Shown: positions 9,617 through 62,697, counted from the first letter of the stretch. The stretch: DNA of 64,000 bases from Candidatus Omnitrophota bacterium (GCA_028717245.1 JAQUOD010000009.1:228-64227); one strand, 5' to 3'. The notes: generated from the sequence alone by a model not told the origin. Numbers and translations: made by a program.

Positions 9617-9696
9617 CGTTATAGCGTTATAGGGTTATAGCGTTATAGCGTTTGTCAACGCAAGTAACCCAATAACGCAAGTAACGCAATAACGAA
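9617..9696. repeat. inverted arrays of ~8-nt tandem repeats (CGTTATAG x4 / GCAAGTAAC-CAATAACG)
   Basis: intergenic between rpmF and plsX. Confidence 0.85.
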
Positions 9697-9699
9697 AAT

Positions 9700-12648: not shown

Positions 12649-12730
12649 GTTATAAGCTTTAAGCTAAAAAATCAAAAGCACAGGGATTTTTTTAAAAAGC
12701 TTACAACTTAAAGCTTACAGCTTACAGCTG
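12641..12730. repeat. inverted arrays of TTACAGC-type heptamer repeats
   Basis: intergenic between fabD and fabG. Confidence 0.85.
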
Positions 12731-15284: not shown

Positions 15285-15383
15285 TTAAAGTTCCATAATG
15301 TTCCATAAGGTTTCATAACGTTACATAAGGTTACCTCAAAAAAAAGCAACCTTATGGAACATTAGGTAACCTTAGGCAACCTT
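15285..15383. repeat. inverted arrays of 10-nt tandem repeats (GTTCCATAAT... / AACCTTATGG...)
   Basis: intergenic between fabF and leuC. Confidence 0.85.
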
Positions 15384-16676
15384 ATGGAATTTGATAATAA
15401 AATGCCTCATACTATCGCAGAAAAAATATTGATGGCTCATACCGGCAAAAAAGACATCCAGCCGGGAGAATTCGTCGAGGCCAGAGTAGACCTGGCCTTA
15501 GGCAATGATATCACCGCGCCCTTTGCTATAGAAGAATTCAGGAAATCGGGCGCAAAAAAAGTCTTTGACAATAAAAAGATAGCGCTTGTCCCTGATCATT
15601 TTGCCCCGGCCAAAGATTTAAAGAGCGCAAATCAATGCAGGATACTGGCAGATTTTGCCCGTGAACAAAAAATAAAAAATTATTTTGAAATAGGCTGTAT
15701 GGGAATTGAACATGCCCTGTTGCCGGAGATGGGTCTGGTTTCGCCCGGGGATTTAGTCATCGGCGCGGATTCCCACACCTGTACCTACGGCGCGTTAGGC
15801 GCTTTTGCCACGGGTGTCGGCTCCACGGATTTAGCCCGCGCCTTTATAGACGGTAAATGTTGGTTCAGGGCGCCGGCTACCATAAAATTCATATATAAAG
15901 GTAAGCCAAAGCCATGGGTGGCTGGTAAAGATTTAATCCTTTATACCATAGGCCAAATCGGCGTGGACGGCGCGTTAGAGAAGGTGATGGAATTTAGCGG
16001 GCCGTTGATGGGTAAATTAAGCATGGATGATAGATTTACTATGTCCAATATGGCTATTGAGGCAGGAGGAGTTACTGGTTTGATTGAACCAGATGGAATT
16101 ACGTTAAGATATATAAAAGAAGTTTCAAAGTTTAAAAGTTTAAAAGTTCCAAAGTTAAAATTTAAAAATTTGAAATCAGATAGAGATGTGCAGTATGAAA
16201 AAATATACGAATGGGACATTTCTAAATTAGAACCGCAGGTGGCCTGTCCGCATTTACCCGGTAACGTGAAAGCTGTTTCCGGCTTGGGAAAGATAAAACT
16301 TGATCAGGTGGTGATTGGCTCCTGCACTAACGGAAGGATCTCGGACTTACGGATTGCGGCTAGGCTATTAAAAGGCAAGAAAGTAAAGGCCGGATTAAGG
16401 CTGATTATTATTCCCGCAACCCAAAAGATTTATCTTCAGGCGGTAAAAGAAGGCCTGGCGGAAATATTTGTGGAAGCAGGCGGCGTCTTTTCTACCCCTA
16501 CCTGCGGCCCGTGCCTCGGCGGGCATATGGGGATACTTACAGAAGGGGAGACATGCCTGGCCACTACCAACAGGAATTTCATCGGCAGGATGGGCAGCCC
16601 CAAGTCATTCGTTTATCTGGCTAGCCCGGCAGTAGCCGCAGCTTCGGCAATAAAAGGGAGAATATCTCATCCTTAA
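15384..16676 (+). CDS. leuC: 3-isopropylmalate dehydratase large subunit (short, archaeal-type LeuC)
   Basis: aconitase-family Cys ligands (CTNGR, TCGPCLG), 430 aa. Confidence 0.85.
   Translation: MEFDNKMPHTIAEKILMAHTGKKDIQPGEFVEARVDLALGNDITAPFAIEEFRKSGAKKVFDNKKIALVPDHFAPAKDLKSANQCRILADFAREQKIKNYFEIGCMGIEHALLPEMGLVSPGDLVIGADSHTCTYGALGAFATGVGSTDLARAFIDGKCWFRAPATIKFIYKGKPKPWVAGKDLILYTIGQIGVDGALEKVMEFSGPLMGKLSMDDRFTMSNMAIEAGGVTGLIEPDGITLRYIKEVSKFKSLKVPKLKFKNLKSDRDVQYEKIYEWDISKLEPQVACPHLPGNVKAVSGLGKIKLDQVVIGSCTNGRISDLRIAARLLKGKKVKAGLRLIIIPATQKIYLQAVKEGLAEIFVEAGGVFSTPTCGPCLGGHMGILTEGETCLATTNRNFIGRMGSPKSFVYLASPAVAAASAIKGRISHP
16121..16176 (+). repeat. in-frame octamer tandem repeat (AGTTTMAA)x7 inside leuC
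   Basis: encodes VSKFKSLKVPKLKFKNLKS. Confidence 0.9.
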
Positions 16677-19930: not shown

Positions 19931-20707
19931 ATGCGTAATATCAAATTAACTATAGAGTACGCCGGCACTAAATACGCCGGATGGCAGGTCCAGGGCAGAA
20001 GGCACAGGACTATCCAGGGAACGTTAGAAAAAGCCCTCCAGAAAATACTTCGGGAAAAAATACATTTAATCGGTTCAGGCAGGACTGATGCCGGGGTGCA
20101 TGCCTTTGGACAAGTAGCTAACTTTAAGACCGATTCCGGCGTGCCTGTTTGGAAAATACAAAAGGCCTTAAATGCGAACTTGCCAGGCGATATTGTAATA
20201 ACTAGCGTAGAGGACGTAAATTTTGATTTTCATAGCCGCTTTGACGCCAAATCAAAAGTATACCGTTACACTGTTTTAAACAGGGCTTATCCCCCGGCAA
20301 TATTGAAAGATAAAGTTTATTTTTATCCTTACCCTTTAGATGTGGAGTTAATGCGTAAAGAAACAAAGTCTCTTTTAGGCCGGCATGATTTTAAATCATT
20401 CTGTGCCAGCTCAAGCAGCGTTAAAGACACCATACGCACAATAAAAAATATAACTATTAAAAAATCGGCTTACAGCTTACAGCTTACAGTTTACAGTTTA
20501 AAAAAGCCCTCTTTGATTACCATTGAGATAGAGGCAGACGGCTTTCTCTACAATATGGTCAGGAATATTACAGGTACGCTGCTTGAGATAGGCAGGGGTA
20601 AACTTCCCGCAGGCAGCCTTAAGAGGATATTACTGGCAAAAAACAGAAGGCTCGCCGGCCCTACGGCCCCTGCCCAAGGATTATGCCTACTTGAGGTTAA
20701 GTATTGA
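19931..20707 (+). CDS. truA: tRNA pseudouridine(38-40) synthase TruA
   Basis: catalytic GSGRTDAGVHA motif. Confidence 0.85.
   Translation: MRNIKLTIEYAGTKYAGWQVQGRRHRTIQGTLEKALQKILREKIHLIGSGRTDAGVHAFGQVANFKTDSGVPVWKIQKALNANLPGDIVITSVEDVNFDFHSRFDAKSKVYRYTVLNRAYPPAILKDKVYFYPYPLDVELMRKETKSLLGRHDFKSFCASSSSVKDTIRTIKNITIKKSAYSLQLTVYSLKKPSLITIEIEADGFLYNMVRNITGTLLEIGRGKLPAGSLKRILLAKNRRLAGPTAPAQGLCLLEVKY
20469..20500 (+). repeat. in-frame heptamer tandem repeat (TTACAGC)x4-5 inside truA
   Basis: encodes AYSLQLTVYSL. Confidence 0.9.
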
Positions 20708-24035: not shown

Positions 24036-24890
24036 ATGGAAGAAGCAATCAAGAAAGCGGATGTATTGATTGAGGCATTGCCTTATATCAAGAGGTTCCA
24101 TAAGAAGGCGATTGTCATTAAATACGGCGGGAGCATCCTGGGAGAAGAAAAAATCAGGAGAGGAGTCCTGGAGGATATTGTTTTTTTAAGTTTTATGGGT
24201 TTAAAGCCGGTATTGGTACATGGGGGAGGCCCGAATATAAGCGAGCGTATTCGTTCAGAAGGGAAGAAGGCGGAATTCGTAGACGGTATACGCGTCACCG
24301 ATGCAAAGACACTGACTGTTGTGGAAGAGGAGTTGCAGAAATTAAACGATATTATTGTCAATGAGATAACTGAATTAGGCGCAAACGCCGTGGGTTTGAA
24401 CGGCCAGGATAAAAAGATAATCCAGGTAAAGAAGAAGAAAGCAGAGGTAGACCTGGGGTTAGTCGGCCATATTACTGAAATAAATGCCGAACCGATACTG
24501 GAAGAATTTAAGTCTGATACAGTAGTCGTTGTGCTGCCGATGGGCAAAGGCCAGGATAAAAAGGCGTACAATGTCAATGCCGATGAGGCAGCCGCCAATA
24601 TTGCCGCTGCCCTTAAGGCGGAGAAATTAGTTTTGCTTACTAATGTAAAAGGCATTATGCGTAATCCTGATGACCCGAATTCTTTTTTATCTACTTTAAC
24701 GGTAGATGAGGCAAAGGGGTTAATTGAAAATAACATTGTCCAGCAGGGGATGATCCCCAAAGTGATGGCCTGCGTTGAGGCATTAGAGAAGGGCGTAAAA
24801 AAGACGCATATTATTGATGCGCGCACGCCGCACGGTTTGCTTTTAGAGATATTTACGGATATGGGAGTAGGGACGGAGATTGTAAGATAG
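24036..24890 (+). CDS. argB: acetylglutamate kinase
   Basis: VIKYGGS and VLVHGGGP motifs. Confidence 0.9.
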   Translation: MEEAIKKADVLIEALPYIKRFHKKAIVIKYGGSILGEEKIRRGVLEDIVFLSFMGLKPVLVHGGGPNISERIRSEGKKAEFVDGIRVTDAKTLTVVEEELQKLNDIIVNEITELGANAVGLNGQDKKIIQVKKKKAEVDLGLVGHITEINAEPILEEFKSDTVVVVLPMGKGQDKKAYNVNADEAAANIAAALKAEKLVLLTNVKGIMRNPDDPNSFLSTLTVDEAKGLIENNIVQQGMIPKVMACVEALEKGVKKTHIIDARTPHGLLLEIFTDMGVGTEIVR

Positions 24891-24925
24891 TTTAAATGTT
24901 AGAATGTTAAAATGTTTAAAAGTTT

Positions 24926-26170
24926 ATGAAAAAAGAAGAGATATTGCAGGCATATAAAGATTACATCATGCCGACCTATACCAAGGTTCCTTTGATTTTT
25001 GTCAAAGGCAAAGGCAGCCGGCTCTGGGATATCCATAATAAAGCTTATCTGGATTTTTTCCCGGGTTGGGGAGTAGGTAACCTGGGGCATTGCCATCCTA
25101 AGGTGGTAGCGGCAGTGCGGGACCAGATTTCCAAATTGATATTTATACCTAATAATTATTACCATATTGCCCAGGCAAAATTAGCCAAGGAGATAGTCTA
25201 TTGGACTCACCCCGCTAAGGTTTTTTTCTGCAATTCCGGGGCAGAGGCAAATGAGGCAGCCATAAAGTTTAGCCGGAAATTCGGCACTTCGACTCAGCCT
25301 TCGGCTTCGCTCAGTGCCGATGGTGAGCGTAGTCGAACCATCGGAAACGGCAGGTATGAAATTATTACTTTCGAAAACTCATTCCACGGCAGGACCCTGG
25401 CTGCTTTGGCTGCTACCGGACAGAAAAAATACCAGAACGGGTTTGCGCCTCTACCGGAAGGTTTTAAGACAGTAAAATTTAACGATATTGAGGAAGTCAA
25501 AAAGGCCATAACCGAAAAGACAGTAGGCATAATGCTGGAGTTGATCCAGGGGGAAGGCGGGATTAATGTCGCCAGCCGGGATTTTGTTTCGGCGTTAAGT
25601 AAGATTTGCGCTGAGAAGAACCTGCTTTTAATCGTAGATGAAGTGCAGACCGGTATCGGCAGGACCGGGAAATTATTCTGCTATCAGCATTACGGCATAA
25701 CCCCGGATATAGTGACGCTGGCCAAGTCCTTAGGCGGAGGCTTGCCTATCGGCGTGATGTTAGTCAAGAAAGAGATTGCCGATACCTTAGGGCCAGGGAT
25801 GCATGCCTCTACTTTTGGGGGAGGGCCGGTAATCTGCAAAGCAGCATTGGCAGTATTCAGGGCCATACAAAAGGAAAAGATGCTTACCAATGCCTCCAGG
25901 ATGGGAGAATATTTATTTACGCGACTGAATGATTTAAAAAATAAGTATCCGGCGATAAAGGAAACAAGGGGTTTGGGCCTGATGGCCGGCGTAGAATTAA
26001 ATATTGAGGGGAAAGCCATCGTGGAAAAATGCATAGAAAATGGGCTTTTGATTAACTGCACTCACGATAAAGTTTTGCGGCTTATGCCGGCATTAAATAT
26101 CAGCAAAAAAGAAATTGATAAAGCGATTAAAATACTGGATAGTGTGTTTGAAAGTTTTTCCGCTTTATAA
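24926..26170 (+). CDS. argD: acetylornithine aminotransferase
   Basis: class III aminotransferase with PLP-lysine in TLAKSLGGG. Confidence 0.85.
   Translation: MKKEEILQAYKDYIMPTYTKVPLIFVKGKGSRLWDIHNKAYLDFFPGWGVGNLGHCHPKVVAAVRDQISKLIFIPNNYYHIAQAKLAKEIVYWTHPAKVFFCNSGAEANEAAIKFSRKFGTSTQPSASLSADGERSRTIGNGRYEIITFENSFHGRTLAALAATGQKKYQNGFAPLPEGFKTVKFNDIEEVKKAITEKTVGIMLELIQGEGGINVASRDFVSALSKICAEKNLLLIVDEVQTGIGRTGKLFCYQHYGITPDIVTLAKSLGGGLPIGVMLVKKEIADTLGPGMHASTFGGGPVICKAALAVFRAIQKEKMLTNASRMGEYLFTRLNDLKNKYPAIKETRGLGLMAGVELNIEGKAIVEKCIENGLLINCTHDKVLRLMPALNISKKEIDKAIKILDSVFESFSAL
25283..25340 (+). repeat. palindromic mini-insertion inside argD (hairpins AGCCTTCGGCT and CCGATGGTGAGCGTAGTCGAACCATCGG)
   Basis: encodes ~20 extra residues TSTQPSASLSADGERSRTIGNG between ARKF and YEIITF. 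Confidence 0.7.
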
Positions 26171-26274
26171 TCTAATTGCGCTAGCGGGATCCCGCTTTAG
26201 TATAAGAAGGTCAAGCGGGAAAATGTTTGAATGTTGTAATGTTAGAATGTTTTAATGTTTAAAAGAAGGATGCT

Positions 26275-27699: not shown

Positions 27700-28890
27700 A
27701 TGACGGATAAGAAAAAGATAGTTCTTGCTTATTCCGGGGGGCTAGATACCTCCTGCGCAGTAAGGTGGCTTAAGGATCAAGGATACGAAGTAATCTGTTT
27801 TGCCGCGGATTTAGGCCAGGGTTTAGGAGGGGGTGAGGATTTTGCGGCAATAGAGGCACGGGCCTTAGCTGCCGGCGCTTCCAAAATATATATTAAAGAC
27901 CTTCAGGATGAATTTGTAGAGGATTTTGTTATCCCGGCTTTAAAGGCAGGCGCTATTTATGAAGGTAAATACCTGCTCGCTACAGCATTGGGCAGGCCTT
28001 TGATTGCCAAATATCTGGTAGAAATAGCGCATAAAGAAAAGGCCGAGGCCGTAGCCCATGGTTGTACCGGTAAAGGTAATGATCAAGTCAGGTTTGAGGT
28101 GACTACGGGAATATTAGACCCAAAATTAGAGATTGTCGCTCCGGTGAGGGCCTGGGATTTTAAGTCGCGGGAAGAAGAAATAGAATACGCGCATACGTAT
28201 AATATCCCTATAGATGTCAGCAAAAAGAAGCCTTACAGCATTGATAGGAATATCTGGGGTATTAGCATTGAAGCGGGCATCCTGGAAAATCTGGAGCAGG
28301 AACCGCCTGAGGACGCTTACCTGATTACCAAGAGCCCGACGGGTGCCTCTACATACCCTAAATATATAGAAATTTCTTTTGAAAAAGGCGTGCCTAAAAA
28401 AATAGACGGCAAGATTTATAAACCGAAGAATTTAATCAACCATCTGAATGAGATAGGCGGGCTTTACGGCGTCGGCAGGAGTGACCTGGTTGAAAATAGA
28501 TTAGTAGGCATTAAATCCAGGGAGATTTACGAAGCGCCTGCGGCGACCATATTGCATATTGCCCATAAAGAATTAGAGAGTATAGTTTTAGACAGGGAAC
28601 TAGCGCATTTTAAAGAGATAGTTTCGCTTAAATATGCGGAGCTGGTTTATTATGGGCTCTGGTATTCTCCTTTAAAAGAGGCGCTGGATGGCTTTGTGGA
28701 TTCTACGCAAAAGTATGCCAGCGGTTCGATAAAAATGAAATTATTCAAGGGTAACTGTGTGGCTGTGGGTAGAAAGTCACATCATTCGTTGTATAAAAAG
28801 GAATTGAGCACTTACGGCAAAGAAGACAAATTCGACCAGAAATTAGCCGAAGGGTTTATTAAGATATGGGGAATGCCTTATAGGAAATAA
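27700..28890 (+). CDS. argG: argininosuccinate synthase
   Basis: AYSGGLDTS P-loop. Confidence 0.9.
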   Translation: MTDKKKIVLAYSGGLDTSCAVRWLKDQGYEVICFAADLGQGLGGGEDFAAIEARALAAGASKIYIKDLQDEFVEDFVIPALKAGAIYEGKYLLATALGRPLIAKYLVEIAHKEKAEAVAHGCTGKGNDQVRFEVTTGILDPKLEIVAPVRAWDFKSREEEIEYAHTYNIPIDVSKKKPYSIDRNIWGISIEAGILENLEQEPPEDAYLITKSPTGASTYPKYIEISFEKGVPKKIDGKIYKPKNLINHLNEIGGLYGVGRSDLVENRLVGIKSREIYEAPAATILHIAHKELESIVLDRELAHFKEIVSLKYAELVYYGLWYSPLKEALDGFVDSTQKYASGSIKMKLFKGNCVAVGRKSHHSLYKKELSTYGKEDKFDQKLAEGFIKIWGMPYRK

Positions 28891-28933
28891 GCCGTAAGCT
28901 GTAAGCCGTAAGTTATAAGATCAAGGAGATGAA

Positions 28934-31735: not shown

Positions 31736-32536
31736 ATGCGAAAGATTGATTTTACCAAAATAGTGGCATCAGGAAACGACTTCGCGGTTATTGAGAACAG
31801 TCGTCAGTTGTCAGTTTTTAGCTTTCAGTCTTTAGCCAAAAAAATATGTGAACGGAAATACGGAGTAGGCGCTGACGGGTTACTTATTTTAGAAAAATCC
31901 AGGGTTGCCGATGTAAGAATGCGCATTTTTAATCCCGATGGTTCGGAGGCCCAAATGTGCGGCAATGGGGCCAGGGCAACCGCGCTCTATAAAAAATCCA
32001 GTAAAGTAAAAATCGAAACCAAAGCAGGGATAATCGAATCCGAGGTAAAGCGGGATAACGTAAAAATAAAACTCACTGAACCAAAAGAAATAAAGTTGGA
32101 TTTACCCGTTAGGCTCAGGAATAGAACTTTACGCGTAAATTTTATCAATACCGGTGTTCCGCATGCCGTAATCTTCGTCGCAGATTTAGACAAGATAGAT
32201 GTGACAGATTTGGGTAGGCAGGTACGTTACCATAAACAATTCGCTCCGCAAGGGACCAATGCCGATTTTATAGAGGTGTTGGATAAAAGGAATATAAAAC
32301 TTAGGACTTATGAAAGAGGCGTAGAAAATGAGACCCTAGCTTGCGGGACAGGGGCGGTCGCCTCAGCTTTAATTACAGCTTACAGCTTACAGCTTACAGC
32401 TTACAGCAGGATAAATATACATACCAAGAGTGGAGAAATATTAAAGGTCTATTTTGAAAAAACAGGCCGGAAATTCAGCGATGTCTGGTTAGAAGGTAAG
32501 GCCAGGATAGTTTACAAAGGAGCGTATTATGTTTAG
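31736..32536 (+). CDS. dapF: diaminopimelate epimerase
   Basis: GNDF N-terminus, catalytic Cys in MCGNGAR and ACGTGA. Confidence 0.85.
   Translation: MRKIDFTKIVASGNDFAVIENSRQLSVFSFQSLAKKICERKYGVGADGLLILEKSRVADVRMRIFNPDGSEAQMCGNGARATALYKKSSKVKIETKAGIIESEVKRDNVKIKLTEPKEIKLDLPVRLRNRTLRVNFINTGVPHAVIFVADLDKIDVTDLGRQVRYHKQFAPQGTNADFIEVLDKRNIKLRTYERGVENETLACGTGAVASALITAYSLQLTAYSRINIHTKSGEILKVYFEKTGRKFSDVWLEGKARIVYKGAYYV
31797..31836 (+). repeat. in-frame ~7-nt tandem repeat (CAGTYGT-like) inside dapF
   Basis: encodes SRQLSVFSFQSLAK. Confidence 0.8.
32383..32407 (+). repeat. in-frame heptamer tandem repeat (TTACAGC)x3.5 inside dapF
   Basis: encodes AYSLQLTAYS immediately after the catalytic ACGTGA motif. 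Confidence 0.9.
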
Positions 32537-36984: not shown

Positions 36985-37074
36985 TTGGTTCTTTGAGTTA
37001 CTTGAGTTCATTGAGTTGTTTGAGTTAGAAACTCAATAACTCTATAAACTCAACAAACTCTATAAACTAAATAA
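36985..37074. repeat. inverted arrays of 9-nt tandem repeats (GAGTTNNTT x4 / AAACTCNAT x5)
   Basis: intergenic between the dapL-like gene and folK. Confidence 0.85.
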
Positions 37075-37473
37075 ATGGTAGTTTGTTTTCTGGGGGTAGG
37101 TTCTAATTTAGGAAACAGAAGGAAAAATATCGAGAAGGCATTGGATTATTTGGTAAAGACCAAGGGTATAAAAATAGAAAAAATCTCGCGGATTTATGAA
37201 ACCGAACCTGTGGGCGCAGTCCCTCAGGGAAAATTCTTGAACGCTGCCCTAAAAATCAGGACTTCGCTTGCACCTCTGCCGCTTCTTAAAACCCTTAAAA
37301 AAATAGAAAAGGCCTTAGGCCGCAAGAAGGGTATCCGTTTTGGCCCGCGCCCCATAGATTTAGATATCCTGCTTTACGCAGACAAGGCGATAAAGACAAA
37401 GGAACTTATGATCCCGCATCCTGAGATGTTCAGGAGGGAATTTGTCCTGAAACCCTTAAGAGACCTGTTATGA
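37075..37473 (+). CDS. folK: 2-amino-4-hydroxy-6-hydroxymethyldihydropteridine pyrophosphokinase
   Basis: LGSNLGNR, EPVG and DLDIL motifs. Confidence 0.8.
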   Translation: MVVCFLGVGSNLGNRRKNIEKALDYLVKTKGIKIEKISRIYETEPVGAVPQGKFLNAALKIRTSLAPLPLLKTLKKIEKALGRKKGIRFGPRPIDLDILLYADKAIKTKELMIPHPEMFRREFVLKPLRDLL

Positions 37474-38330: not shown

Positions 38331-38375
38331 AAATTACGAGTTACCAATTACGAATTACCGATTACGGATTTTAGC

Positions 38376-39194: not shown

Positions 39195-39300
39195 TAGATA
39201 AGTTAGTGTCAAGGTGCCAAGTATCAATGTGTCAAAGGAAAAGCAATAAAAGATTTTATACTTTGATACTCTGACACTATGATACTTTGATACATAATCG
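39195..39300. repeat. inverted arrays of ~8-9-nt repeats (GTGTCAAAG... / CTTTGATAC...)
   Basis: intergenic after the nadX-like gene. Confidence 0.85.
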
Positions 39301-42512: not shown

Positions 42513-45011
42513 ATGAATAAACTCAAAAATCAATTTTTTAAATCTCTTAGAATTCTTTTACCTTTTCTTTTTATTTTCGCTTACAGCTTACAGCTTACAG
42601 CTTACAGCTTACATGCCCAGGATTCCTCCAAGGAAGAAGAGGCGCTCTTTGTCGCCGAGAAGGCCTTTGAAGACGGCTTCTATGACGTAGCCTTGGGGCT
42701 CTTTGAGCGTTTCTTAAAGAATTACCCTGCTTCTTCCAGGGCAGCAGAAGCGAACCTTTTAATCGGGCAGTGCTATTATCACCAGAATAGGTTCTTAGAT
42801 GCCCTAGCCAAGTTTGAAGGGCTCCTTACTTGGCCTCCCGCGCAGAATATCAAGGACGAAGTCCTCTATTGGATCGCCGAAGTGCATTTTAAAGGCAATA
42901 ATTTTACCAAGGCAGGCCAGTATTACAGGATGATAATTGAGGGTTACCCGAAATCTTCTTATTCCGTTTATGCCTATTATTCCTTAGGCTGGTGTTTGTT
43001 CCAGGAATCCGATTTTACCGAGGCCGTGAAATACTTTAAAATCACACAGGAGAAATTCCCCAAGGAGCCTCAGGCGCAGGATTCCGCGTTTAAAATAGCG
43101 GAGTGCCTCTATAATCTGAAGGATTACACCGGCACCAAAGACAGGCTGCAATCTTATATGAAGGCCTACCCTAAGGATAGCGCGCGCACCGCTTATATTT
43201 ATTTTTATCTGGCCGAAGCAGATTATTATTTGAACAATTTCAGTGAGGCCATTGATGAATATTCCAAGGCCATAGCCAATACTAATGACGAAAGAATACA
43301 GGCGCTCTCTAAGTTAGGCATAGGCTGGGCCTACCTGAAATCAAAAAAATATAAGGAAGCCCAGGATACGTTTTCAGGCATCGTACCCGATAAACTGGAG
43401 AAAAAGGGGCAGGATATCCTGTTATTAGGCAAAGCGCTTTTATCCGCAGAGACTAAGAGATTTACCCAGGCCAAAGATACGTATGATGAATTATTAAAGG
43501 TATCTTCTGACCCGCTTATTTTAATTCAGGGTTATCTGGGCAAGGCTGAAACGCTTTATAATATTTCCGAATATAAAGAGGCAATAGGCGTATACGAAGA
43601 GGCATTAGACAAGATATCGGCATCCATACCCCAGGAGAGCATTGACAAGCTGCATTACGGCCTGGCCTGGGCATTTTTAAAAGAGGGGGAATTCAAAGAA
43701 GCAATAGACGAATTCCAGAAGATTGCCAGGCACACTGAAGATAAGATGATTAAGGTAGCCGCGCTCTGCCAGATAGGCGATGCCTACCAGGACTCGGGAG
43801 AATACGTCAAGGCAATTGAGGCATACGATACCATATTAAAGGATTATCCGGATACGTTATATAACGATTACGTGCAATATCAGTTAGGCAACAGTTTACT
43901 GAAGACCTATAATTACGACGGAGCGATCATGGCTTTCCAGAGCCTGAAAAACAATTTCCCTAATTCGAAATTATCCGATGAGGCAGCTTATGCCTTGGGG
44001 ATAACTTATTTTCAAAAACAGGACTATAACTCCAGCAAGGAAATCTTCGAAAATTTTAAGGATGAATTTAAAGAGAGCGCCTTAAGGCCCCAAGGCATGT
44101 ATCTTTTAGGGAGCAGCCTCTATAATTTAGGTGAATTTGCGCAGGCTATCGAGGTCTTTAAAGATATCATCAGGAACTACAACCAGGATACGGAGTCAGT
44201 CCAGAAGGCCGAATACGAGATAGCCGATTGCTACTACCAGCTTGGGAATGAAAAAGAGGCCATGGACAGGTTTAAGGTATTGCGCTCCAAATATCCCGAT
44301 TCCCGGCTCACCCCGGAAGTGATGTGGTGGCTGGGGGAGTACTATTACAGGCATGATGACCTGGGCCTGGCGCGCCGGTATTTCTCCTCGCTAATACAGG
44401 ACTTTCCCAAGAGTAATTTAATCCCCGATGCCTACTATATTTTAGGTTCTACTTACGCAGAGGAAGGCAAGTATGAAGAAGCCATAGCAAATTTCAAGAA
44501 GGCAGCAGAATTAGGTAAATCCGACCTCACCGGCACATCCGGTATTGCCATAGCGGATATATATGCCAAACAAGGCAAAACCGATTTGGCCCTGAAGATG
44601 TATAAGGACGTAGCCAGGGAATACGCTAATCTCGCAACTTTGATTTATCCGAAGATCGCAGGCCTCTACCGTAAGTCAGGTAATTATAATGAAGCAATAA
44701 ATTTTTATAACCAGAGCCTGGATGTAGTCCCGGCGAGAGAAATGGCGGATATCCAATTTAAGATAGCAGAGACTAAAGAGGCGCAGGGTGAATACAGCGA
44801 GGCTATCGAAGAGTACTTGAAAGTTACCTACCTTTATGCGGAAAATAACAACTTAGCGGTAAAATCGCTTCTAAGGATAGCCGCGATTTATGAAGATAAA
44901 GAGAATTTTAAAGAAGCGGTTAATATTTACAAAAGAATCCGGGCCATGGATGTAGAAGAGGCAAAATACGCCCAAGAGAGGATGGACTGGATAAAGGCGC
45001 ACGCAAAATAA
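42513..45011 (+). CDS. secreted tetratricopeptide-repeat protein (832 aa)
   Basis: signal peptide followed by many TPR-like A/Y/L repeats. Confidence 0.7.
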   Translation: MNKLKNQFFKSLRILLPFLFIFAYSLQLTAYSLHAQDSSKEEEALFVAEKAFEDGFYDVALGLFERFLKNYPASSRAAEANLLIGQCYYHQNRFLDALAKFEGLLTWPPAQNIKDEVLYWIAEVHFKGNNFTKAGQYYRMIIEGYPKSSYSVYAYYSLGWCLFQESDFTEAVKYFKITQEKFPKEPQAQDSAFKIAECLYNLKDYTGTKDRLQSYMKAYPKDSARTAYIYFYLAEADYYLNNFSEAIDEYSKAIANTNDERIQALSKLGIGWAYLKSKKYKEAQDTFSGIVPDKLEKKGQDILLLGKALLSAETKRFTQAKDTYDELLKVSSDPLILIQGYLGKAETLYNISEYKEAIGVYEEALDKISASIPQESIDKLHYGLAWAFLKEGEFKEAIDEFQKIARHTEDKMIKVAALCQIGDAYQDSGEYVKAIEAYDTILKDYPDTLYNDYVQYQLGNSLLKTYNYDGAIMAFQSLKNNFPNSKLSDEAAYALGITYFQKQDYNSSKEIFENFKDEFKESALRPQGMYLLGSSLYNLGEFAQAIEVFKDIIRNYNQDTESVQKAEYEIADCYYQLGNEKEAMDRFKVLRSKYPDSRLTPEVMWWLGEYYYRHDDLGLARRYFSSLIQDFPKSNLIPDAYYILGSTYAEEGKYEEAIANFKKAAELGKSDLTGTSGIAIADIYAKQGKTDLALKMYKDVAREYANLATLIYPKIAGLYRKSGNYNEAINFYNQSLDVVPAREMADIQFKIAETKEAQGEYSEAIEEYLKVTYLYAENNNLAVKSLLRIAAIYEDKENFKEAVNIYKRIRAMDVEEAKYAQERMDWIKAHAK
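42580..42612 (+). repeat. in-frame heptamer repeat (TTACAGC)x4.5 in the signal peptide of the TPR protein
   Basis: encodes AYSLQLTAYSLHA. Confidence 0.9.
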
Positions 45012-45100
45012 TTGTGTCAAAGTGTCAGTGTATCAAAGTGTCAAAGAAGAAACTTTGATACTTGATACCTTGATACTTTGATACAACCATCGCTATATTA
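45012..45100. repeat. inverted arrays of 8-9-nt repeats (GTGTCAAAG / CTTTGATAC)
   Basis: same repeat unit as at 39195-39300. Confidence 0.85.
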
Positions 45101-47642: not shown

Positions 47643-47777
47643 TTCCTTCCTAAAAATCTATTATAATCTAAGTAAATCTATTATAATCTAAGTAAATAAA
47701 TTATTATCTTATTAGGCCTTAATTTAAGACTAATTTTAAACATAAGTAAGTTTGAGTAAGTCTATATAAAAAAACAC

Positions 47778-55385: not shown

Positions 55386-55457
55386 ATAAGCAGGTAGCAG
55401 GCACCTAAAACAAAGAAATTAATATTTAGTTAAGTTTATTATACAAGGAGGCTCAAG

Positions 55458-55892
55458 ATGAAAAAAGGTTTTACGCTCTTAGAACTAATCGTAGTCATGA
55501 TCATCATCGGTATCCTGGCTACCTTAGGTATCCAGCAATACGCCCGGGCAACAGAGAGGGCAAGAGGCGCTGAGGCCAGGCAGGTTTTAGGCCAGATCCG
55601 CACTACTGCCGCAGGATTTCGCTTACAGAATGGAAATAGTTGTGCAGGGTTTGGGAATGACCAGGCTGGTATTGGCACTGAGACTGACCGGATTCCCATA
55701 GATTGCACCAGAGCGACACACTATTTCAGGTATGGGGTTACAGCCGCTACCGCAGATGCTATTATTCTTACTGCTACACGTTGCACAGGAACTAACGGCA
55801 AACAACCGGGCGCTTCAACAGCTTTTCAACTCACTCTAAATACTGACTTTGTATTGGGCACTGATACCTGGGCCGGAAACGGCGGGTATTAA
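55458..55892 (+). CDS. type IVa pilin paralog 1 (MKKGF|TLLELI)
   Basis: prepilin leader, E+5, Cys pair, C-terminal TWAGNGGY; GGAGG SD. Confidence 0.85.
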   Translation: MKKGFTLLELIVVMIIIGILATLGIQQYARATERARGAEARQVLGQIRTTAAGFRLQNGNSCAGFGNDQAGIGTETDRIPIDCTRATHYFRYGVTAATADAIILTATRCTGTNGKQPGASTAFQLTLNTDFVLGTDTWAGNGGY

Positions 55893-55904
55893 TTTAGGCT
55901 CAAG

Positions 55905-56339
55905 ATGAAAAAAGGTTTTACGCTCTTAGAGTTAATCGTGGTCATGATCATTATTGGTATCCTGGCTACTTTAGGTATCCAGCAATACGCCCGGGCAACA
56001 GAGAGGGCCAGAGGCGCTGAAGCCAGGCAGATTTTAGGCCAGATCCGCAGCACTGCCGCAGGGTATTATTTACAGAATGGAACTTGCGTAGGGTTTAATG
56101 ATACATTAGCGGGTATTGGCGGGAATCCTGACCAGATCCCTACCGGATGCAGGGCAACACACTATTTTAATTATTATATTAATATCGGATATCTGACTAC
56201 GGACGTTATGCGGGCTACTGCTACCCGTTGCATAGGAGGTAGGGGTAAACCGCCGAGCGCTTCAACAGCTTTTCAACTCACTCTGACTACTAATTTTGCT
56301 AATGGCAATGACACCTGGGGCGGAAACGGCGGGTATTAA
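55905..56339 (+). CDS. type IVa pilin paralog 2
   Basis: N-terminal 55 aa and last ~25 aa shared with paralogs 1, 3 and 4. Confidence 0.85.
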   Translation: MKKGFTLLELIVVMIIIGILATLGIQQYARATERARGAEARQILGQIRSTAAGYYLQNGTCVGFNDTLAGIGGNPDQIPTGCRATHYFNYYINIGYLTTDVMRATATRCIGGRGKPPSASTAFQLTLTTNFANGNDTWGGNGGY

Positions 56340-56351
56340 TTTAGGCTCAAG

Positions 56352-56786
56352 ATGAAAAAAGGTTTTACGCTCTTAGAGTTAATCGTGGTCATGATCATTA
56401 TTGGTATCCTGGCTACTTTAGGTATCCAGCAATACGCCCGGGCAACAGAGAGGGCCAGAGGCGCTGAAGCCAGGCAGATTTTAGGCCAGATCCGCAGCAC
56501 TGCCGCAGGGTATTATTTACAGAATAGAACTTGCGTAGGGTTTAATGATGCAGCAGCTGGTCTTGGCGGGAATCCTGACCAGATCCCCAGGGCATGCAGG
56601 GCAACCCACTATTTTTATTATTTCATTAATACTGTAAATGCGGACGGTATTTTTGTTGCTGCTGTGCGTTGCTCAGGAACTGATAACGGTAAACAGCCGG
56701 GTGCTGCTTCTGTTGATCGCGTCCTTACTCTAACTACTAACTTTGCTAATGGTGTTGATACCTGGTCCGGAAACGGCGGGTATTAA
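56352..56786 (+). CDS. type IVa pilin paralog 3
   Basis: as paralog 2. Confidence 0.85.
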   Translation: MKKGFTLLELIVVMIIIGILATLGIQQYARATERARGAEARQILGQIRSTAAGYYLQNRTCVGFNDAAAGLGGNPDQIPRACRATHYFYYFINTVNADGIFVAAVRCSGTDNGKQPGAASVDRVLTLTTNFANGVDTWSGNGGY

Positions 56787-56798
56787 TTTAGGCTCAAG

Positions 56799-57233
56799 AT
56801 GAAAAAAGGTTTTACGCTCTTAGAACTAATCGTAGTCATGATCATCATCGGTATCCTGGCTACCTTAGGTATCCAGCAATACGCCCGGGCAACAGAGAGG
56901 GCCAGAGGCGCTGAAGCTAGGCAGATTTTAGGCCAGATCCGCGCTACTGCCGCAGGGTATCGCTTACAGAATGGAACTTGCACAGGGTTTAATGATGCAG
57001 CAGCTGGTATTGGCAGGAACCCTGACCAGATTCCCAGGGTATGCGCGTCAACGCACTATTTTTATTATTGGCTTCATCCTGATACTGGGGGTGATACTTT
57101 TCGGGCTATTGCTACGCGTTGCACGGCAGCAGAAAGCGGTAAGTCACCAGGAGCTTCAGCAGCCCTTTTCCTCTCACTAACTACTAATTTTGCTAATGGC
57201 ACTGATACCTGGTCCGGAAACGGCGGGTATTAA
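56799..57233 (+). CDS. type IVa pilin paralog 4
   Basis: as paralog 2. Confidence 0.85.
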   Translation: MKKGFTLLELIVVMIIIGILATLGIQQYARATERARGAEARQILGQIRATAAGYRLQNGTCTGFNDAAAGIGRNPDQIPRVCASTHYFYYWLHPDTGGDTFRAIATRCTAAESGKSPGASAALFLSLTTNFANGTDTWSGNGGY

Positions 57234-57274
57234 TCTTTAGGGAGCATTGATACATTCGTAAAAGGAGGCTCAAG

Positions 57275-59114: not shown

Positions 59115-59183
59115 AAAAGCAAGATACTTTTTGTTTGCTAAATCACCCAAGTTGTGCTAAATTTAAGCTTAAATTAATCTTAT

Positions 59184-59259
59184 GGGGCGATAGTTCAGTT
59201 GGGAGAACGCTACATTCGCATTGTAGAGGTCGCGGGTTCAAATCCCGCTCGCTCCACCA
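59184..59259 (+). tRNA. tRNA-Ala (anticodon CGC), CCA encoded
   Basis: cloverleaf folded by hand: 7-bp acceptor with G3:U70, D-stem GTTC/GAAC, anticodon loop TTCGCAT, T-loop TTCAAAT. Confidence 0.85.
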
Positions 59260-59264
59260 AATAT

Positions 59265-60377
59265 ATGAAAAGCCCGAATAAGTTATTCGCAGGTTTATTT
59301 TTCTTGTCTGTATTAATCATCGCTAGCCTTTATTTACCTTCTATCGTAGATATCCATTCCCAGGATAAATTAAAAGAGGCCCTTTTTTACGAAAAATTAG
59401 AGAATAAAACCGTGCAGTGCCAATTGTGCCCCAGAAGATGCACAATCCCCGACGGCAGGCGCGGTTTTTGCGGCGTCAGGGAGAACCAGGACGGCACGCT
59501 GTATACTTTAGTCTATGCAAAGCCCGTAGCCATACACATTGACCCTATTGAAAAAAAGCCTCTTTTTCATTTCCTGCCCGCAACAGGCGCGTTCTCTATT
59601 GCTACTGCCGGCTGTAATTTAAAGTGCAAGTTTTGCCAGAATTGGGAGATTTCCCAGCGAAAACCCGAAGAATTAGAGTATGTTTATCTTGAGCCGCAGG
59701 ATTTAATAAGGCAGGTTTTGGAATCAGGTTCGCCTACCATTGCCTATACTTATTCTGAACCCACTATATTCTATGAATATATGCTGGAGACCGCCAAGAT
59801 AGCCAGAGAACACGGCATAAAGAATATTATGCATTCCTGCGGTTATATAAATGAGGCCCCTTTACGGCAATTAGCCAAATACCTGGATGCCGCTAACATA
59901 GATTTAAAGGCCTTTAACGATGATTTTTACGCTAAGATGTCCGAGGCCGCTTTAGGGCCGGTATTAGAGAGCCTGAAGATATTAAGGCAGGAGGGCGTGC
60001 ATGTAGAGATAACCAGTTTAATCCTTTCCGGCTACAATGACGACGAGGGCTCTATTACAAAGATGTGCCTTTGGATAAAAGAAAATTTAGGCAGCGATAC
60101 GCCCTTACATTTTTCCCGCGCCTTCCCGATGTATAAGCTTTTAAGCCTTAACCCCACGCCGGTAGAAACCCTGGAAAAAGCCAGGCGCATTGCCTTAGAT
60201 TGCGGCTTAAAATATGTCTACATAGGCAACGTAGCCGGCCACCCGGCAGAAAATACCTATTGCCCCAGGTGCAAGAAGACAGTAATAAAGCGGGCTGGCT
60301 ACATCATAGCCGAGAATAACTTAAAAAATGGGAAATGTAAATTCTGTGGAGAAAAAATTGCGGGTGTCTGGCAGTAG
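59265..60377 (+). CDS. AmmeMemoRadiSam-system radical SAM enzyme (AmrS-like) with extra N-terminal TM segment
   Basis: CQLCPRRC...GFCG cluster upstream of the radical-SAM CNLKCKFC motif; start moved out of the tRNA. Confidence 0.75.
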   Translation: MKSPNKLFAGLFFLSVLIIASLYLPSIVDIHSQDKLKEALFYEKLENKTVQCQLCPRRCTIPDGRRGFCGVRENQDGTLYTLVYAKPVAIHIDPIEKKPLFHFLPATGAFSIATAGCNLKCKFCQNWEISQRKPEELEYVYLEPQDLIRQVLESGSPTIAYTYSEPTIFYEYMLETAKIAREHGIKNIMHSCGYINEAPLRQLAKYLDAANIDLKAFNDDFYAKMSEAALGPVLESLKILRQEGVHVEITSLILSGYNDDEGSITKMCLWIKENLGSDTPLHFSRAFPMYKLLSLNPTPVETLEKARRIALDCGLKYVYIGNVAGHPAENTYCPRCKKTVIKRAGYIIAENNLKNGKCKFCGEKIAGVWQ

Positions 60378-61866
60378 AGCCACAAGTTGCAAGGCAAGAT
60401 TCCTAAAAATCATCTTGTTTCTTCTTTTTACTTACAGCTTACAGCTTACAGCTTACAGCTTATATGCTGATGATATCCAGGAACCCAATGCCGCAGGCAC
60501 TTTCTACCCGGACGACCCGCAGCAGTTATCCCAAATGATTGACGAATTTTTGAATCAGGCAAACCCAGAGGCAGTGCAGGGCGATATATTCGCTTTGATT
60601 TCCCCGCATGCGGGTTATGGTTTTTCAGGGGGAGTAGCTGCCTTTGGCTATAAGCTGATCAAAGATAAGCCATATAAGACGGTGATTATTATCGGACCCA
60701 GCCACCAGTATGGTTTTCAAGGCGTATCCGTGTATCCAAAAGGAATATTCCGCAGCCCCTTAGGAGATTTAGAGATAGATACGGAATTTACCAAGAATTT
60801 GCTTTATCAGGAGAATAATATCTTTTTTGAGCCGGCAGCTTTTGAAAAAGAACACTCAATAGAAGTACAGCTGCCCTTTTTGCAAAAAGTTCTTTCTAAT
60901 TTCAAAATCGTGCCCATTGTGATGGGGGATTGCAGTTTTTCTACCTGCCAAAAATTAGCAGGTTTACTGAAAGAGGCGATAGGCAGTCGCAGGGATGTTT
61001 TGGTAGTTGCTTCCACGGATATGTATCACGGTTATGATTATGCAGAGGCAGGGGTAGTTGACAATTTGACCCTTAGTTATCTTGAGGATATGGATGCCCG
61101 GGGTTTATATGATGGATTAAGAGAAGGCAAACTACAGCTTTGCGGAGGGTTTGGGGTTGTCTCTACCTTAATTTTAGCCAAAGAATTAGGCCACAATAAA
61201 TTGAAAGTATTAAAATATACGGATTCCAGCATAGTAACAGGAAAGAAGGCCAAGGGGGCCTGGACCGTAGGTTATGCCAGTTGTGTTATCGATCAGGAAA
61301 AGGGGGAGTTAAATATGTTAAATAAAGAGCAGAGAAAAAAGCTATTGGGTATTGCGCGTAAATCCATAGAGGCGTATTTAAAAGGCGGAAAAAAACTGCA
61401 ACTTAATGAAACAGATCCCGTATTGTTAAAAGAGATAGGCGCCTTTGTGACCTTGCATGAACGCGCTCAATTACGCGGCTGTATCGGAAATATAATAGGG
61501 CGGGGCCCCCTGTATCTTACCATTAGGGATATGGCTGTTGAGGCAGCGACAGGAGATCCGCGTTTTCAGCCTATGAAACCTGATGAACTCAAGGATGTTG
61601 AAATAGAGATATCCGTGCTTTCTCCTTTAAAAAGAATAACCTCCATAGATGAAATTCAATTAGGTACCCATGGTGTTTTGATCAGGAGGGATTTTGCCAG
61701 CGGCATATTCCTGCCTCAGGTAGCCACGGAGACCGGCTGGCCCAAAGAAGAATTCCTCTCTAATCTCTGCAGCCATAAAGCAGGATTGGAGCCGGATGCC
61801 TGGAAGGATAAGGCCACGGAAATTTATATTTTTAGCGCCGAAGTATTTTCTGAAAAAGATTTTTAG
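60328..61866 (+). CDS. fused MEMO1-family (AmrB-like) and AMMECR1-family (AmrA-like) protein with N-terminal signal-peptide-like segment
   Basis: AAGTFYPDDP MEMO1 N-terminus; C-terminal AMMECR1 motifs GAFVTLHE...LRGCIG; overlaps the AmrS gene by 50 nt. Confidence 0.75.
   Translation: MGNVNSVEKKLRVSGSRATSCKARFLKIILFLLFTYSLQLTAYSLYADDIQEPNAAGTFYPDDPQQLSQMIDEFLNQANPEAVQGDIFALISPHAGYGFSGGVAAFGYKLIKDKPYKTVIIIGPSHQYGFQGVSVYPKGIFRSPLGDLEIDTEFTKNLLYQENNIFFEPAAFEKEHSIEVQLPFLQKVLSNFKIVPIVMGDCSFSTCQKLAGLLKEAIGSRRDVLVVASTDMYHGYDYAEAGVVDNLTLSYLEDMDARGLYDGLREGKLQLCGGFGVVSTLILAKELGHNKLKVLKYTDSSIVTGKKAKGAWTVGYASCVIDQEKGELNMLNKEQRKKLLGIARKSIEAYLKGGKKLQLNETDPVLLKEIGAFVTLHERAQLRGCIGNIIGRGPLYLTIRDMAVEAATGDPRFQPMKPDELKDVEIEISVLSPLKRITSIDEIQLGTHGVLIRRDFASGIFLPQVATETGWPKEEFLSNLCSHKAGLEPDAWKDKATEIYIFSAEVFSEKDF
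60431..60466 (+). repeat. in-frame heptamer repeat (TTACAGC)x5 in the N-terminal hydrophobic segment of the MEMO1-AMMECR1 fusion
   Basis: encodes TYSLQLTAYSLYA. Confidence 0.9.
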
Positions 61867-62040
61867 CACCAGGTGCGAATTCAATCGGGCACCAGGTGCG
61901 AATTTGAGATTGTACCTGTCCCTTTTAATTAAAGATAATCAGGGGACAGGTACAAGATTAGATTCAGAAACGGTACAAGATTAACTTTGCACCCGGTACA
62001 AGATTAGATTGGCACCCGGTGCGAAATAGGCATTACTAAA
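61867..62040 (+). repeat. family E element copy 2, extended into a ~170-nt palindrome (...GTACCTGTCCC / GGGACAGGTAC...)
   Basis: left arm matches 33405-33465. Confidence 0.8.
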
Positions 62041-62043
62041 ATT

Positions 62044-62697
62044 ATGTTTAAAATAATGCTTTCTTTATTCCTTACTGGCCTAATATTCGGCTCTGGCCCG
62101 TGCTTAGCCAGTTGCGGGCCATTTCTCATCAGCTATATTGCCGGAACAAAAAAGAATGTCCCCGGCAGTATGATAACTTATCTTCTATTTTCTTTCTCCA
62201 GGATATGCGCATACCTGGTTTTAAGCCTGATGATCTTCTTTTTGAGCAGGTTTATGATAGAAAGATTATTGGGCAGCCTTTCTAAATACCTCTTCATATC
62301 GGGGGGAGTAATTATGGCGGTAATGGGTGTATTTCTGGCTTTAGGCAAAAAAATAGAATTACCTTTTTGGCGGCCTTTATATAAGAATATGCTGGAACAC
62401 GATAAAAAGAATATCGTCATTCTGGGTTTAATCATCGGCCTGCTGCCTTGCGCTCCGCTTCTGGCCATATTCTCTTATATAGGCTTGATTTCGCACCTTT
62501 GGTCTTCAAACCTTCTTTATACCTTATCCTTTGGCGCGGGTACATTTCTTTCGCCCCTGATATTATTAGTTATCCTTGCCGGTTTGATCCCGCGTTTCCT
62601 GGCGAATATAAAGGCATCCTATTCTTCTATATTTAATTTTATCTGCGGCCTGGTTATTGTGTTTTTGGGCCTGAATTTAATTATCAGGGCACTTTAA
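62044..62697 (+). CDS. hypothetical polytopic membrane protein with paired Cys motif GSGPCLASCGP
   Basis: six predicted TM helices. Confidence 0.35.
   Translation: MFKIMLSLFLTGLIFGSGPCLASCGPFLISYIAGTKKNVPGSMITYLLFSFSRICAYLVLSLMIFFLSRFMIERLLGSLSKYLFISGGVIMAVMGVFLALGKKIELPFWRPLYKNMLEHDKKNIVILGLIIGLLPCAPLLAIFSYIGLISHLWSSNLLYTLSFGAGTFLSPLILLVILAGLIPRFLANIKASYSSIFNFICGLVIVFLGLNLIIRAL

Follow-up and report, generated by a model that had tools for sequence, protein, structure and literature searches.

The window analysed here, a whole stretch of 64,000 nucleotides (nt) from a Candidatus Omnitrophota bacterium (GCA_028717245.1 JAQUOD010000009.1:228-64227), carries a complete AmmeMemoRadiSam system in which a gene for a radical S-adenosylmethionine (SAM) enzyme is followed by a gene that joins a Memo domain and an AMMECR1 domain in one chain. 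Both polypeptides begin with a leader of the export type, and we regard it as an even prospect that the system acts at the outer side of the cytoplasmic membrane, where it would be fed by a trans-membrane redox protein of the DsbD_2 family. The conservation of MEMO1 and AMMECR1 extends from archaea to humans, and both have ties to disease; to our knowledge their chemistry is unsolved. The prokaryotic three-enzyme system is in our opinion the best route to that chemistry. Memo systems have reportedly been linked to isoprenoid modification, and nucleotide-base modification is said to have been mentioned alongside it.

The identity of the locus is certain. An initial annotation, made from the DNA itself, had named the triad as the recognised but functionally unsolved AmmeMemoRadiSam system, and searches with hidden Markov models agree: all three family models match far above their cut-offs, with 378.7 bits for the radical SAM enzyme (TIGR04337, cut-off 220), 255.7 bits for the Memo domain or system protein B (TIGR04336, cut-off 26) and 180.5 bits for the AMMECR1 domain or system protein A (TIGR04335, cut-off 99). 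The components are encoded together, in adjacent and overlapping genes with B and A in a single chain, and their catalytic motifs are intact. The NCBI names of the two window proteins (P0001 for the fused protein and P0121 for the radical SAM enzyme) are already those of AmmeMemoRadiSam proteins, a name that JGI uses too; no functional study using it was found in the literature. The window nevertheless differs from the system as modelled in its B-A fusion, in the export-type leaders on both polypeptides and in the DsbD_2 membrane protein downstream, and the match to the family models begins only past the leaders. Of 150 remote representatives, 79 have no N-terminal extension at all.

The radical SAM enzyme (59265..60377, + strand, 370 amino acids (aa)) is identical to P0121, which comes from an Omnitrophica metagenome-assembled genome (MAG). 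It matches PF04055 at 78.6 bits and has the CX3CX2C motif of the radical SAM superfamily as CNLKCKFC at residues 117-124 (59613..59636); this motif is invariant in homologue alignments, as is a C-terminal CX2C...CX2C motif (CPRC...CKFC, 60261..60347). An extra four-cysteine motif, CQLCPRRC-x9-C (59418..59471), is a likely auxiliary Fe-S (iron-sulfur) site, with cysteines C58, C61 and C75 invariant in alignment A1. The nearest characterised and solved relatives of the core are the activases of glycyl-radical enzymes, such as the pyruvate formate-lyase activating enzyme (PDB 3c8f), with which the CX3CX2C motif is held in common. However, the similarity is weak (33 bits to 3c8f), and the window enzyme adds the N-terminal four-cysteine motif, the C-terminal CX2C...CX2C and a leader peptide, with no glycyl-radical partner nearby. 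No solved structure of the radical SAM family itself was found, the closest being that of pyruvate formate-lyase activase.

The second gene was correctly described as a fusion. The longest open reading frame (ORF), 60328-61866, encodes 512 aa from ATG 60328 and joins Memo (residues 52-321, also matching PF01875 at 207.8 bits) to AMMECR1 (residues 338-507, also matching PF01871), the residue numbers being counted from that ATG; a comparison of starts favours a protein of 502 aa from a likely TTG start (60358..61866, + strand). On the DNA the Memo domain spans 60481..61290 and, aligned to the MEMO1 structure 3bcz, keeps the metal-site residues (PHAGY, GPSH, TDMYH, LCGG). The AMMECR1 domain (61339..61848) contains an LRGCIG motif (61471-61488) and has PDB relatives in 1vaj, 1zq7 and 1wsc. 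The fusion had been singled out as notable. It is present, but it is the norm both in Omnitrophota, where all of the best 120 Memo-AMMECR1 homologues are fused, and in the signal-bearing clade described below, where 52 of 57 Memo-containing ORFs beside clade enzymes are fused to AMMECR1.

The N-termini are another matter. Hydrophobic or signal-like segments had been pointed out at the start of both proteins, lying ahead of the cysteine clusters in the radical SAM enzyme, and both behave as export or anchor signals that are kept across homologues. Topology was judged throughout from hydropathy, charge counts and motif reading, with the positive-inside and -3/-1 rules applied by hand. The alignment to TIGR04337 begins at residue 41, leaving about 40 N-terminal residues outside the family core. 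This leader (59265..59360) consists of MKSPNK with its two lysines, an 18-residue hydrophobic stretch (residues 7-24, LFAGLFFLSVLIIASLYL; Kyte-Doolittle 2.4 over 17 residues), PSIVDIHS and then QD. The leader of the fused protein (60358..60468) runs from a basic tip (..KARFLK) through the hydrophobic stretch IILFLLFTYSLQLTAYSL to YA and then DD. By these heuristics each has the features of a Sec-type, signal peptidase I substrate, namely a basic tip, an 18-residue core (10-20 being expected) and a cleavage-like site judged by small residues at -3 and -1 (I-H-S before QD in one, L-Y-A before DD in the other), and both look like Sec-type signal peptides. The twin-arginine (Tat) motif S/T-R-R-x-F-L-K is found in neither window leader and is present in many relatives from the clade. 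A lipobox, [LVI][ASTVI][GAS]C, is likewise absent from the window, where the radical SAM enzyme has Ser at the position of the homologues' Cys and the fused leader has no Cys after its core.

Comparison with close relatives bears these leaders out. Among the best 120 radical SAM homologues, all from Omnitrophota and 65-81% identical (P0121-P0240), 115 begin with MKNLLKL, about 18 hydrophobic residues and ..LP..xAQ before the core sequence LKEALFY; the net charge is about +2 before the hydrophobic segment and about 0 after it, and the leader usually ends in A-Q. In the 120 fused homologues the layout is nearly always a basic tip, then a hydrophobic core, then [FY]-A with Q, E or D next, directly abutting the Memo domain, so that fused B-A proteins with signal-type leaders recur almost throughout this Omnitrophota set. 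In 100 of the 120 radical SAM homologues the hydrophobic segment ends in a Cys (C[FI]YLP), which lies in a strict lipobox in 30, in a loose one in 30 and in no fitting context in 40. Many relatives may thus be lipoproteins, which the window radical SAM enzyme would not be.

The apparent membrane or periplasmic targeting extends well beyond the window genome. The radical SAM enzyme was searched against 1.84 billion representative proteins and the N-termini of the best 150 matches were sorted. The 79 without an extension are 330-350 aa long and start MKEALFY; the remainder comprise many twin-arginine leaders (TRRDFL, SRREFL, KREFL and similar), some Sec-like or transmembrane (TM) segments and several fusions. 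Pfam recognises DsbD_2 joined to the radical SAM domain, FMN_bind plus Fer4_5 (NapH/NosR-like) joined to it and, in a single chain of 1055 aa, DsbD_2, FMN_bind, Fer4_5 and radical SAM together. Further fusions combine a signal anchor, FMN_bind and radical SAM, or place Memo, AMMECR1 and radical SAM behind one N-terminal signal. On a neighbour-joining tree of the radical SAM cores, leader state changes 4 times, where shuffling the labels 300 times gave 39 changes on average and never fewer than 31, and all leader-bearing and fused forms, the window enzyme among them, are essentially one clade.

Some 165 related loci were examined overall, with 80 from species-representative genomes (found with a 6-sequence Tat-type alignment) and 80 metagenome loci (found with the window enzyme), and were annotated with self-built profiles. 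Tat-type enzymes occur in Planctomycetota, Bacteroidota, Chloroflexota, Desulfobacterota, Acidobacteriota, KSB1, WOR-3, Omnitrophota and two archaeal MAGs, with a near-invariant RR, and 10 of 10 tested score 300-377 bits against TIGR04337. Of the 57 Memo-containing ORFs mentioned above, 54 have an N-terminal signal, 17 of these with a lipobox. A CxxCH heme c motif lies between leader and core in 18 enzymes, and in eight CxxCH loci of Anaerolineae (L021, L031, L037, L039, L042, L063, L079, L084) a ResB gene stands immediately upstream, with CcsA too in five of the eight. The order there is ResB (and CcsA), a Tat-leader radical SAM gene with an inserted CxxCH...YCHxPxH and, where the flank suffices, a lipoprotein-like Memo-AMMECR1 gene, mostly adjacent. 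Covalent attachment of heme c occurs outside the cytoplasm. Read from their sequences, these loci imply a radical SAM enzyme carrying heme c.

Fused modules lend further support to an outward position. FMN_bind domains receive their flavin mainly outside the cytoplasm (Meheust et al. 2021, PMC8238504), and P0254 and P0260 have one N-terminal TM, FMN_bind and a radical SAM domain with no TM between the last two. The NapH-like fusions possess one extra TM past the last CX3CP loop, and their radical SAM domain would accordingly lie outside. FMN_bind and Fer4_5 modules of the kind described in that paper are fused to, or encoded beside, relatives of the window enzyme; the window differs in having no such module, and the fusions in their additional TM. 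The full text of PMC8238504 does not contain the term "radical SAM", nor does it mention Memo or AMMECR1. In 10 of 13 fusions of DsbD_2 to the radical SAM domain there are six TM with loops alternating between K/R-rich and K/R-poor, a pattern that predicts both termini facing outward and the radical SAM domain outside. In the triple fusions (P0093, P0400, P0404) the single hydrophobic segment is at the N-terminus and the domains are joined without another, which means that all three domains lie on the same side of the membrane. Memo-radical SAM fusions likewise have just one leader, at the N-terminus, and those of P0410 and L110 contain a lipobox-like Cys. No Memo or AMMECR1 gene was seen within 6 kb of a Lentisphaerae DsbD_2-radical SAM fusion (P0395). 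Separately, a NapH-like/FMN_bind membrane gene lies directly upstream of a leaderless radical SAM gene in three Omnitrophota loci (L019, L026, L033), the unfused counterpart of P0242 and P0243.

The DsbD_2 gene of the window (62044..62697, + strand) encodes a membrane protein of six TM, by hydropathy and charge, that matches PF13386 at 66 bits (cut-off 24.9). It has a CX3C in TM1 (PCLASC) and a PC in TM4; the PC pairs occupy residues 19-20 and 135-136, and residue 24 is another Cys. Membership of the Pfam DsbD clan (PF13386 is a sister of PF02683), six TM, cysteines in TM1 and TM4 and both termini predicted outside liken it to the DsbD/CcdA trans-membrane thiol-disulfide carriers. It departs from them in having CX3C rather than a single Cys in TM1 and in its presumed partner, a radical SAM enzyme rather than a thioredoxin-like protein, and electron transfer by the window protein is conjectured from this likeness. 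A DsbD_2 gene also follows the system in L002, L004, L086, L087, L089, L091 and L094, and elsewhere is fused to the radical SAM enzyme. It stands beside 18 of 39 Sec-like or TM-type enzymes versus 1 of 104 Tat-type enzymes (Fisher p = 3e-11, uncorrected for relatedness). We view DsbD_2 as a probable fourth component, and the pattern would make sense if a reductant, or some other supply through DsbD_2, were needed when the enzyme crosses the membrane unfolded.

Domain identities, leaders and their conservation, clade structure, fusions and neighbourhoods are all read directly, and from them we infer actual export, the role of DsbD_2, the nature of the substrate and some route by which SAM and Fe-S clusters would reach the outside. 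Both proteins would be made with Sec-type leaders, bringing their catalytic domains to the outer side of the cytoplasmic membrane or into the periplasm. DsbD_2, through its cysteines in TM1 and TM4, would carry reducing power across the membrane for the radical SAM enzyme, or would keep its Cys ligands reduced. The enzyme, as is known of its family, would cleave S-adenosylmethionine to give a 5'-deoxyadenosyl radical, which in turn would act upon a substrate that the Memo metal site and the LRGCIG site of AMMECR1 hold or process. Such a substrate would be a component of the cell envelope (lipid, isoprenoid or protein), not a cytoplasmic nucleotide. The wider proposal, that the whole radical SAM clade and its Memo-AMMECR1 partners work outside the cytoplasm, delivered by Tat, by Sec or as lipoproteins and wired through DsbD_2, NapH-like/FMN or heme c modules, we would put just short of an even prospect.

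Several considerations weigh against work on the outer face. Radical SAM enzymes depend on SAM, on a low-potential electron donor and on [4Fe-4S] clusters, all of which, as far as we know, the cell makes in its cytoplasm. The window leaders contain no twin arginine, and export of an unfolded Fe-S enzyme by Sec would need cluster assembly outside, for which we know of no machinery. Literature on radical SAM enzymes with Tat or the periplasm yielded only cytoplasmic maturases of exported substrates. No described periplasmic or exported radical SAM enzyme was found in the searchable literature, a scope that did not take in Burroughs et al. 2019 (J Biol Chem); a location outside the cytoplasm is accordingly without found precedent, and its novelty is provisional. 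Among the ten Tat-type proteins the curated Tat-signal model TIGR01409 passes one and Pfam TAT_signal matches one, below threshold; because these models fall mostly below threshold, the Tat call is based on the motif and on how well it is conserved. For the DsbD_2 and NapH-like fusions, the positive-inside argument is weakened by the K/R-rich linkers that follow their last TM. The association with DsbD_2 ignores relatedness and uses a profile built from four sequences, and in the window 177 nt with repeats and a terminator-like hairpin separate the system from the DsbD_2 gene, the corresponding distance in relatives being 3-21 nt or an overlap. The window DsbD_2 also matches an efflux permease family weakly and could be a transporter, not an electron carrier.

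Some of these difficulties would disappear if the hydrophobic N-termini were uncleaved anchors holding the enzymes on the cytoplasmic face, to act there on a membrane lipid such as an isoprenoid. The attraction of such anchoring is that SAM, reductant and Fe-S assembly are available on that side, in keeping with the established biochemical needs of radical SAM enzymes. The missing RR motif of the window leaders is in its favour, as is the C[FI]YLP motif, which at 100 of 120 homologues is kept more than is usual for a disposable signal peptide and in 40 of them has no lipobox fit to account for it. The reported link of Memo systems to isoprenoid modification would also fit such anchoring. However, the charge of about +2 before and about 0 after the segment would place the N-terminus inside and the domain outside, and the Memo domain follows the [FY]-A/Q-E-D junction directly, with no linker. 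Tat leaders, lipoboxes, heme c motifs by ResB/CcsA and same-chain FMN_bind domains within the same clade speak against it as well, as does the outward C-terminus predicted for the DsbD_2 fusions. On balance we consider anchoring on the cytoplasmic face the leading alternative, though a rather unlikely one.

Should the system indeed work outside the cytoplasm, these would be the first extracytoplasmic radical SAM enzymes, breaking the working assumption that radical SAM chemistry stays cytoplasmic. It would also mean some not-yet-known supply or retention of SAM outside the cell and, in Sec-type members such as that of the window, Fe-S assembly there too, and the Memo/AMMECR1 substrate would lie in the cell envelope. 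The presence of export signals, lipoprotein anchors, heme c motifs and electron modules in one large branch would narrow the substrate search to the envelope. If the localisation is false, membrane-anchored enzymes coupled to DsbD_2 would still point to a lipid substrate.

Other genes recur in the neighbourhoods of the clade. Most frequent among the further neighbours of leader-bearing radical SAM genes (65 loci) is a gene for a polytopic membrane protein of 700-800 aa with a central spermidine-synthase-like domain (PF01564; resembling PRK03612), for example at L061 5776-7902, L023 8969-11374, L040 3019-5280 and L099 2158-4446. Its number of TM before the domain is ambiguous by hydropathy, and the gene is absent from the window; with a fold that binds SAM or decarboxylated SAM, the protein is a candidate handler of SAM at the membrane. 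A second, different radical SAM family is encoded on the minus strand beside Tat-type enzymes in L114, L117, L118, L120, L123, L124, L126 and L129. It scores about 45 bits on the window-family profile and has a twin-arginine leader (MK.TRR[DE]FIK...) where the N-terminus is visible (L117, L120, L124, L126, L129). Ten loci (L143 (2997-3968), L029, L130, L152-L154, L157, L160, L162, L164) encode a DUF362 protein, immediately upstream of the Tat-type radical SAM gene in at least eight of them; the representative in L143 has a Tat-like leader, and a DUF6599 protein is near in four of the ten.

Immediately upstream of the system lies a tRNA-Ala with anticodon CGC and an encoded CCA end (59184..59259, + strand; ARAGORN, and Rfam RF00005 at 70.1 bits), the only tRNA that either program reported in the window. 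As the initial annotation had it, this gene ends 5 nt before the radical SAM ATG at 59265, with only the A/T spacer AATAT (59260..59264) and no Shine-Dalgarno sequence between them. The co-transcription drawn from this spacing is plausible, still as an inference, but it belongs to a lineage and not to the system. Every evaluable locus of the window's Omnitrophota subclade (14 of 14) has tRNA-Ala(CGC) upstream of the first gene of the system, even L001, where that first gene is the Memo-AMMECR1 fusion in place of the radical SAM gene and the tRNA is still directly upstream. The spacer measures 5-31 nt in seven of these loci, none with a Shine-Dalgarno sequence (short examples are L001 (TTCTA), L095 (TTTTTT), L091, L096 and L002), and about 28-220 nt in the other seven, several of which hold palindromes complementary to the tRNA's CCACCA end. 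The remaining fetched loci, about 150 of all leader types, have no adjacent tRNA-Ala. Since the tRNA is present throughout the subclade and absent beside these others, a shared transcript is likely in the window lineage and the tRNA is not part of the AmmeMemoRadiSam system.

Such a transcript would start just upstream of the tRNA, run through the radical SAM gene and the overlapping Memo-AMMECR1 gene, and end near a terminator-like hairpin with a T-rich tail (61893..61918, + strand). The hairpin is a consensus match, and the number of such sites is not above shuffled expectation. A candidate promoter, read by eye and of low confidence, is TTGCTA, 17 nt, TG-n-TAAATT with an extended -10 (59135..59163, + strand); it agrees at 8 of 12 consensus positions and falls under the threshold of the promoter scan, which gave nothing there. 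In that scan, too, counts of promoters and terminators were no higher than expected from shuffled sequence. Transcripts joining a tRNA to an mRNA are known from the tufB operon of E. coli and from mitochondrial tRNA punctuation. The window resembles them in that a tRNA on the same strand directly precedes a coding sequence, too closely for a promoter to fit in between; it differs in a leader of just 5 nt, without a Shine-Dalgarno sequence, and is known here from its sequence.

It might be argued from its presence in 14 of 14 loci, including the one in which the first gene is swapped, and from the reported mention of nucleotide-base modification noted above, that the tRNA is functionally tied to the system, for instance as substrate or regulator, rather than being a neighbour that shares its transcript. 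This is highly improbable given the roughly 150 other loci that do without an adjacent tRNA-Ala whatever their leader type, the variation of the spacer from 5 to about 220 nt with inserted palindromes in some loci, and the fact that a tRNA would be out of reach for exported enzymes. As to the long spacers themselves, those of L004 (3707-3808), L086 (1520-1637), L089 (2837-2980), L092 (3857-3985) and L094 (2561-2588) open with a palindrome around TTTCATTAATGAAA and close with TGGTGG; palindrome and tRNA CCACCA end form a single long hairpin, and L086 has the element twice.

The leader-coding DNA of the fused gene contains, as had been noticed, a TTACAGC tandem repeat (60431..60462, + strand, 4.6 exact copies), which lies within the hydrophobic stretch. 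Short arrays in such a position bring to mind the CTCTT repeats found where Neisseria opa genes encode their leaders, and the heptamer arrays of the window also resemble the STRR heptamer repeats of cyanobacteria. A slipped-strand switch for phase variation of the Memo-AMMECR1 gene could be imagined on this basis: the unit is 7 nt long, it is repeated in the 5' coding region, and the gain or loss of one unit would shift the frame. Leaders with a seven-residue periodicity in homologues from other genomes (SYQLSAIS, GYWLLVIGYWLLV, SYELRVTSYEL) imply other heptamers in the same place, the nucleotide units there being back-inferred. Unlike the opa and STRR repeats, however, the window unit is dispersed to six sites (12698, 20468, 28888, 32373, 42579 and 60431, each with about 3.6-5 copies), two of them in frame within ORFs that by eye are TruA-like and DapF-like and one in the leader of another exported protein. 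TTACAGC arrays also lie in intergenic gaps, and dozens of other arrays with units of 7-10 nt fill the intergenic regions. Dispersal that takes in housekeeping-like ORFs argues against a switch specific to the Memo-AMMECR1 gene, which we think most improbable; TTACAGC looks like a dispersed repeat family, tolerated wherever it encodes a harmless peptide.

Across the whole window Tandem Repeats Finder returned 62 rows of period 7-10 nt and about 4-5 copies, mostly intergenic. Examples are 6798-6830, 9617-9708, 12630-12729, 15286-15384, 20468-20500, 24890-24926, 26222-26260, 28888-28912, 32373-32407, 36988-37075, 38332-38370, 39205-39293, 42579-42613, 45013-45084 and 47654-47709. Among units that recur at distant sites, TTACAGC is present at six and AGTGTCAA, or something close to it, at three. 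Several arrays are in frame within ORFs that by eye are housekeeping genes (RecG-like, TruA-like and DapF-like).

The start of the fused gene was examined with care. The overlap of 50 nt with the radical SAM gene in the initial annotation is true of the longest ORF, from ATG 60328, a codon that falls within conserved Lys-Asn-Gly codons of the radical SAM gene; the true overlap is probably 20 nt, from TTG 60358. That codon has a GGAG 6 nt upstream, keeps its position in L004, L086 and L093, and corresponds to the database start of P0029 in L004; the NCBI record of the window protein (P0001, 506 aa) begins at GTG 60346. The choice does not affect the leader, as there are zero in-frame start codons between 60415 and the Memo domain and every candidate start therefore retains it whole. 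That the N-terminal extensions are artefacts of starts called too far upstream can be dismissed as next to impossible: some database homologues are indeed over-extended, through the tRNA (MGERYIRIVEV...) or the end of the radical SAM gene (MENVNFAERKL...), but no in-frame starts follow the hydrophobic segments, these segments are kept in more than 200 homologues, and the leaders are not start-codon artefacts.

Two other features flank the locus. The gap downstream (61867-62020) holds the direct repeat CACCAGGTGCGAA twice and a 23-nt unit in 3.1 copies at 61949-62020, in addition to the hairpin at 61893-61918. On the other side, a 447-nt unit is repeated four times in tandem at 55449-57234 (81% matches), each copy coding for a type IV pilin-like protein of 144 aa (MKKGFTLLELIVV...), with further pseudopilin genes after the pilin array up to 59114. 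This block of pilin and type II secretion system genes is also found upstream of the tRNA and the system in related Omnitrophota.

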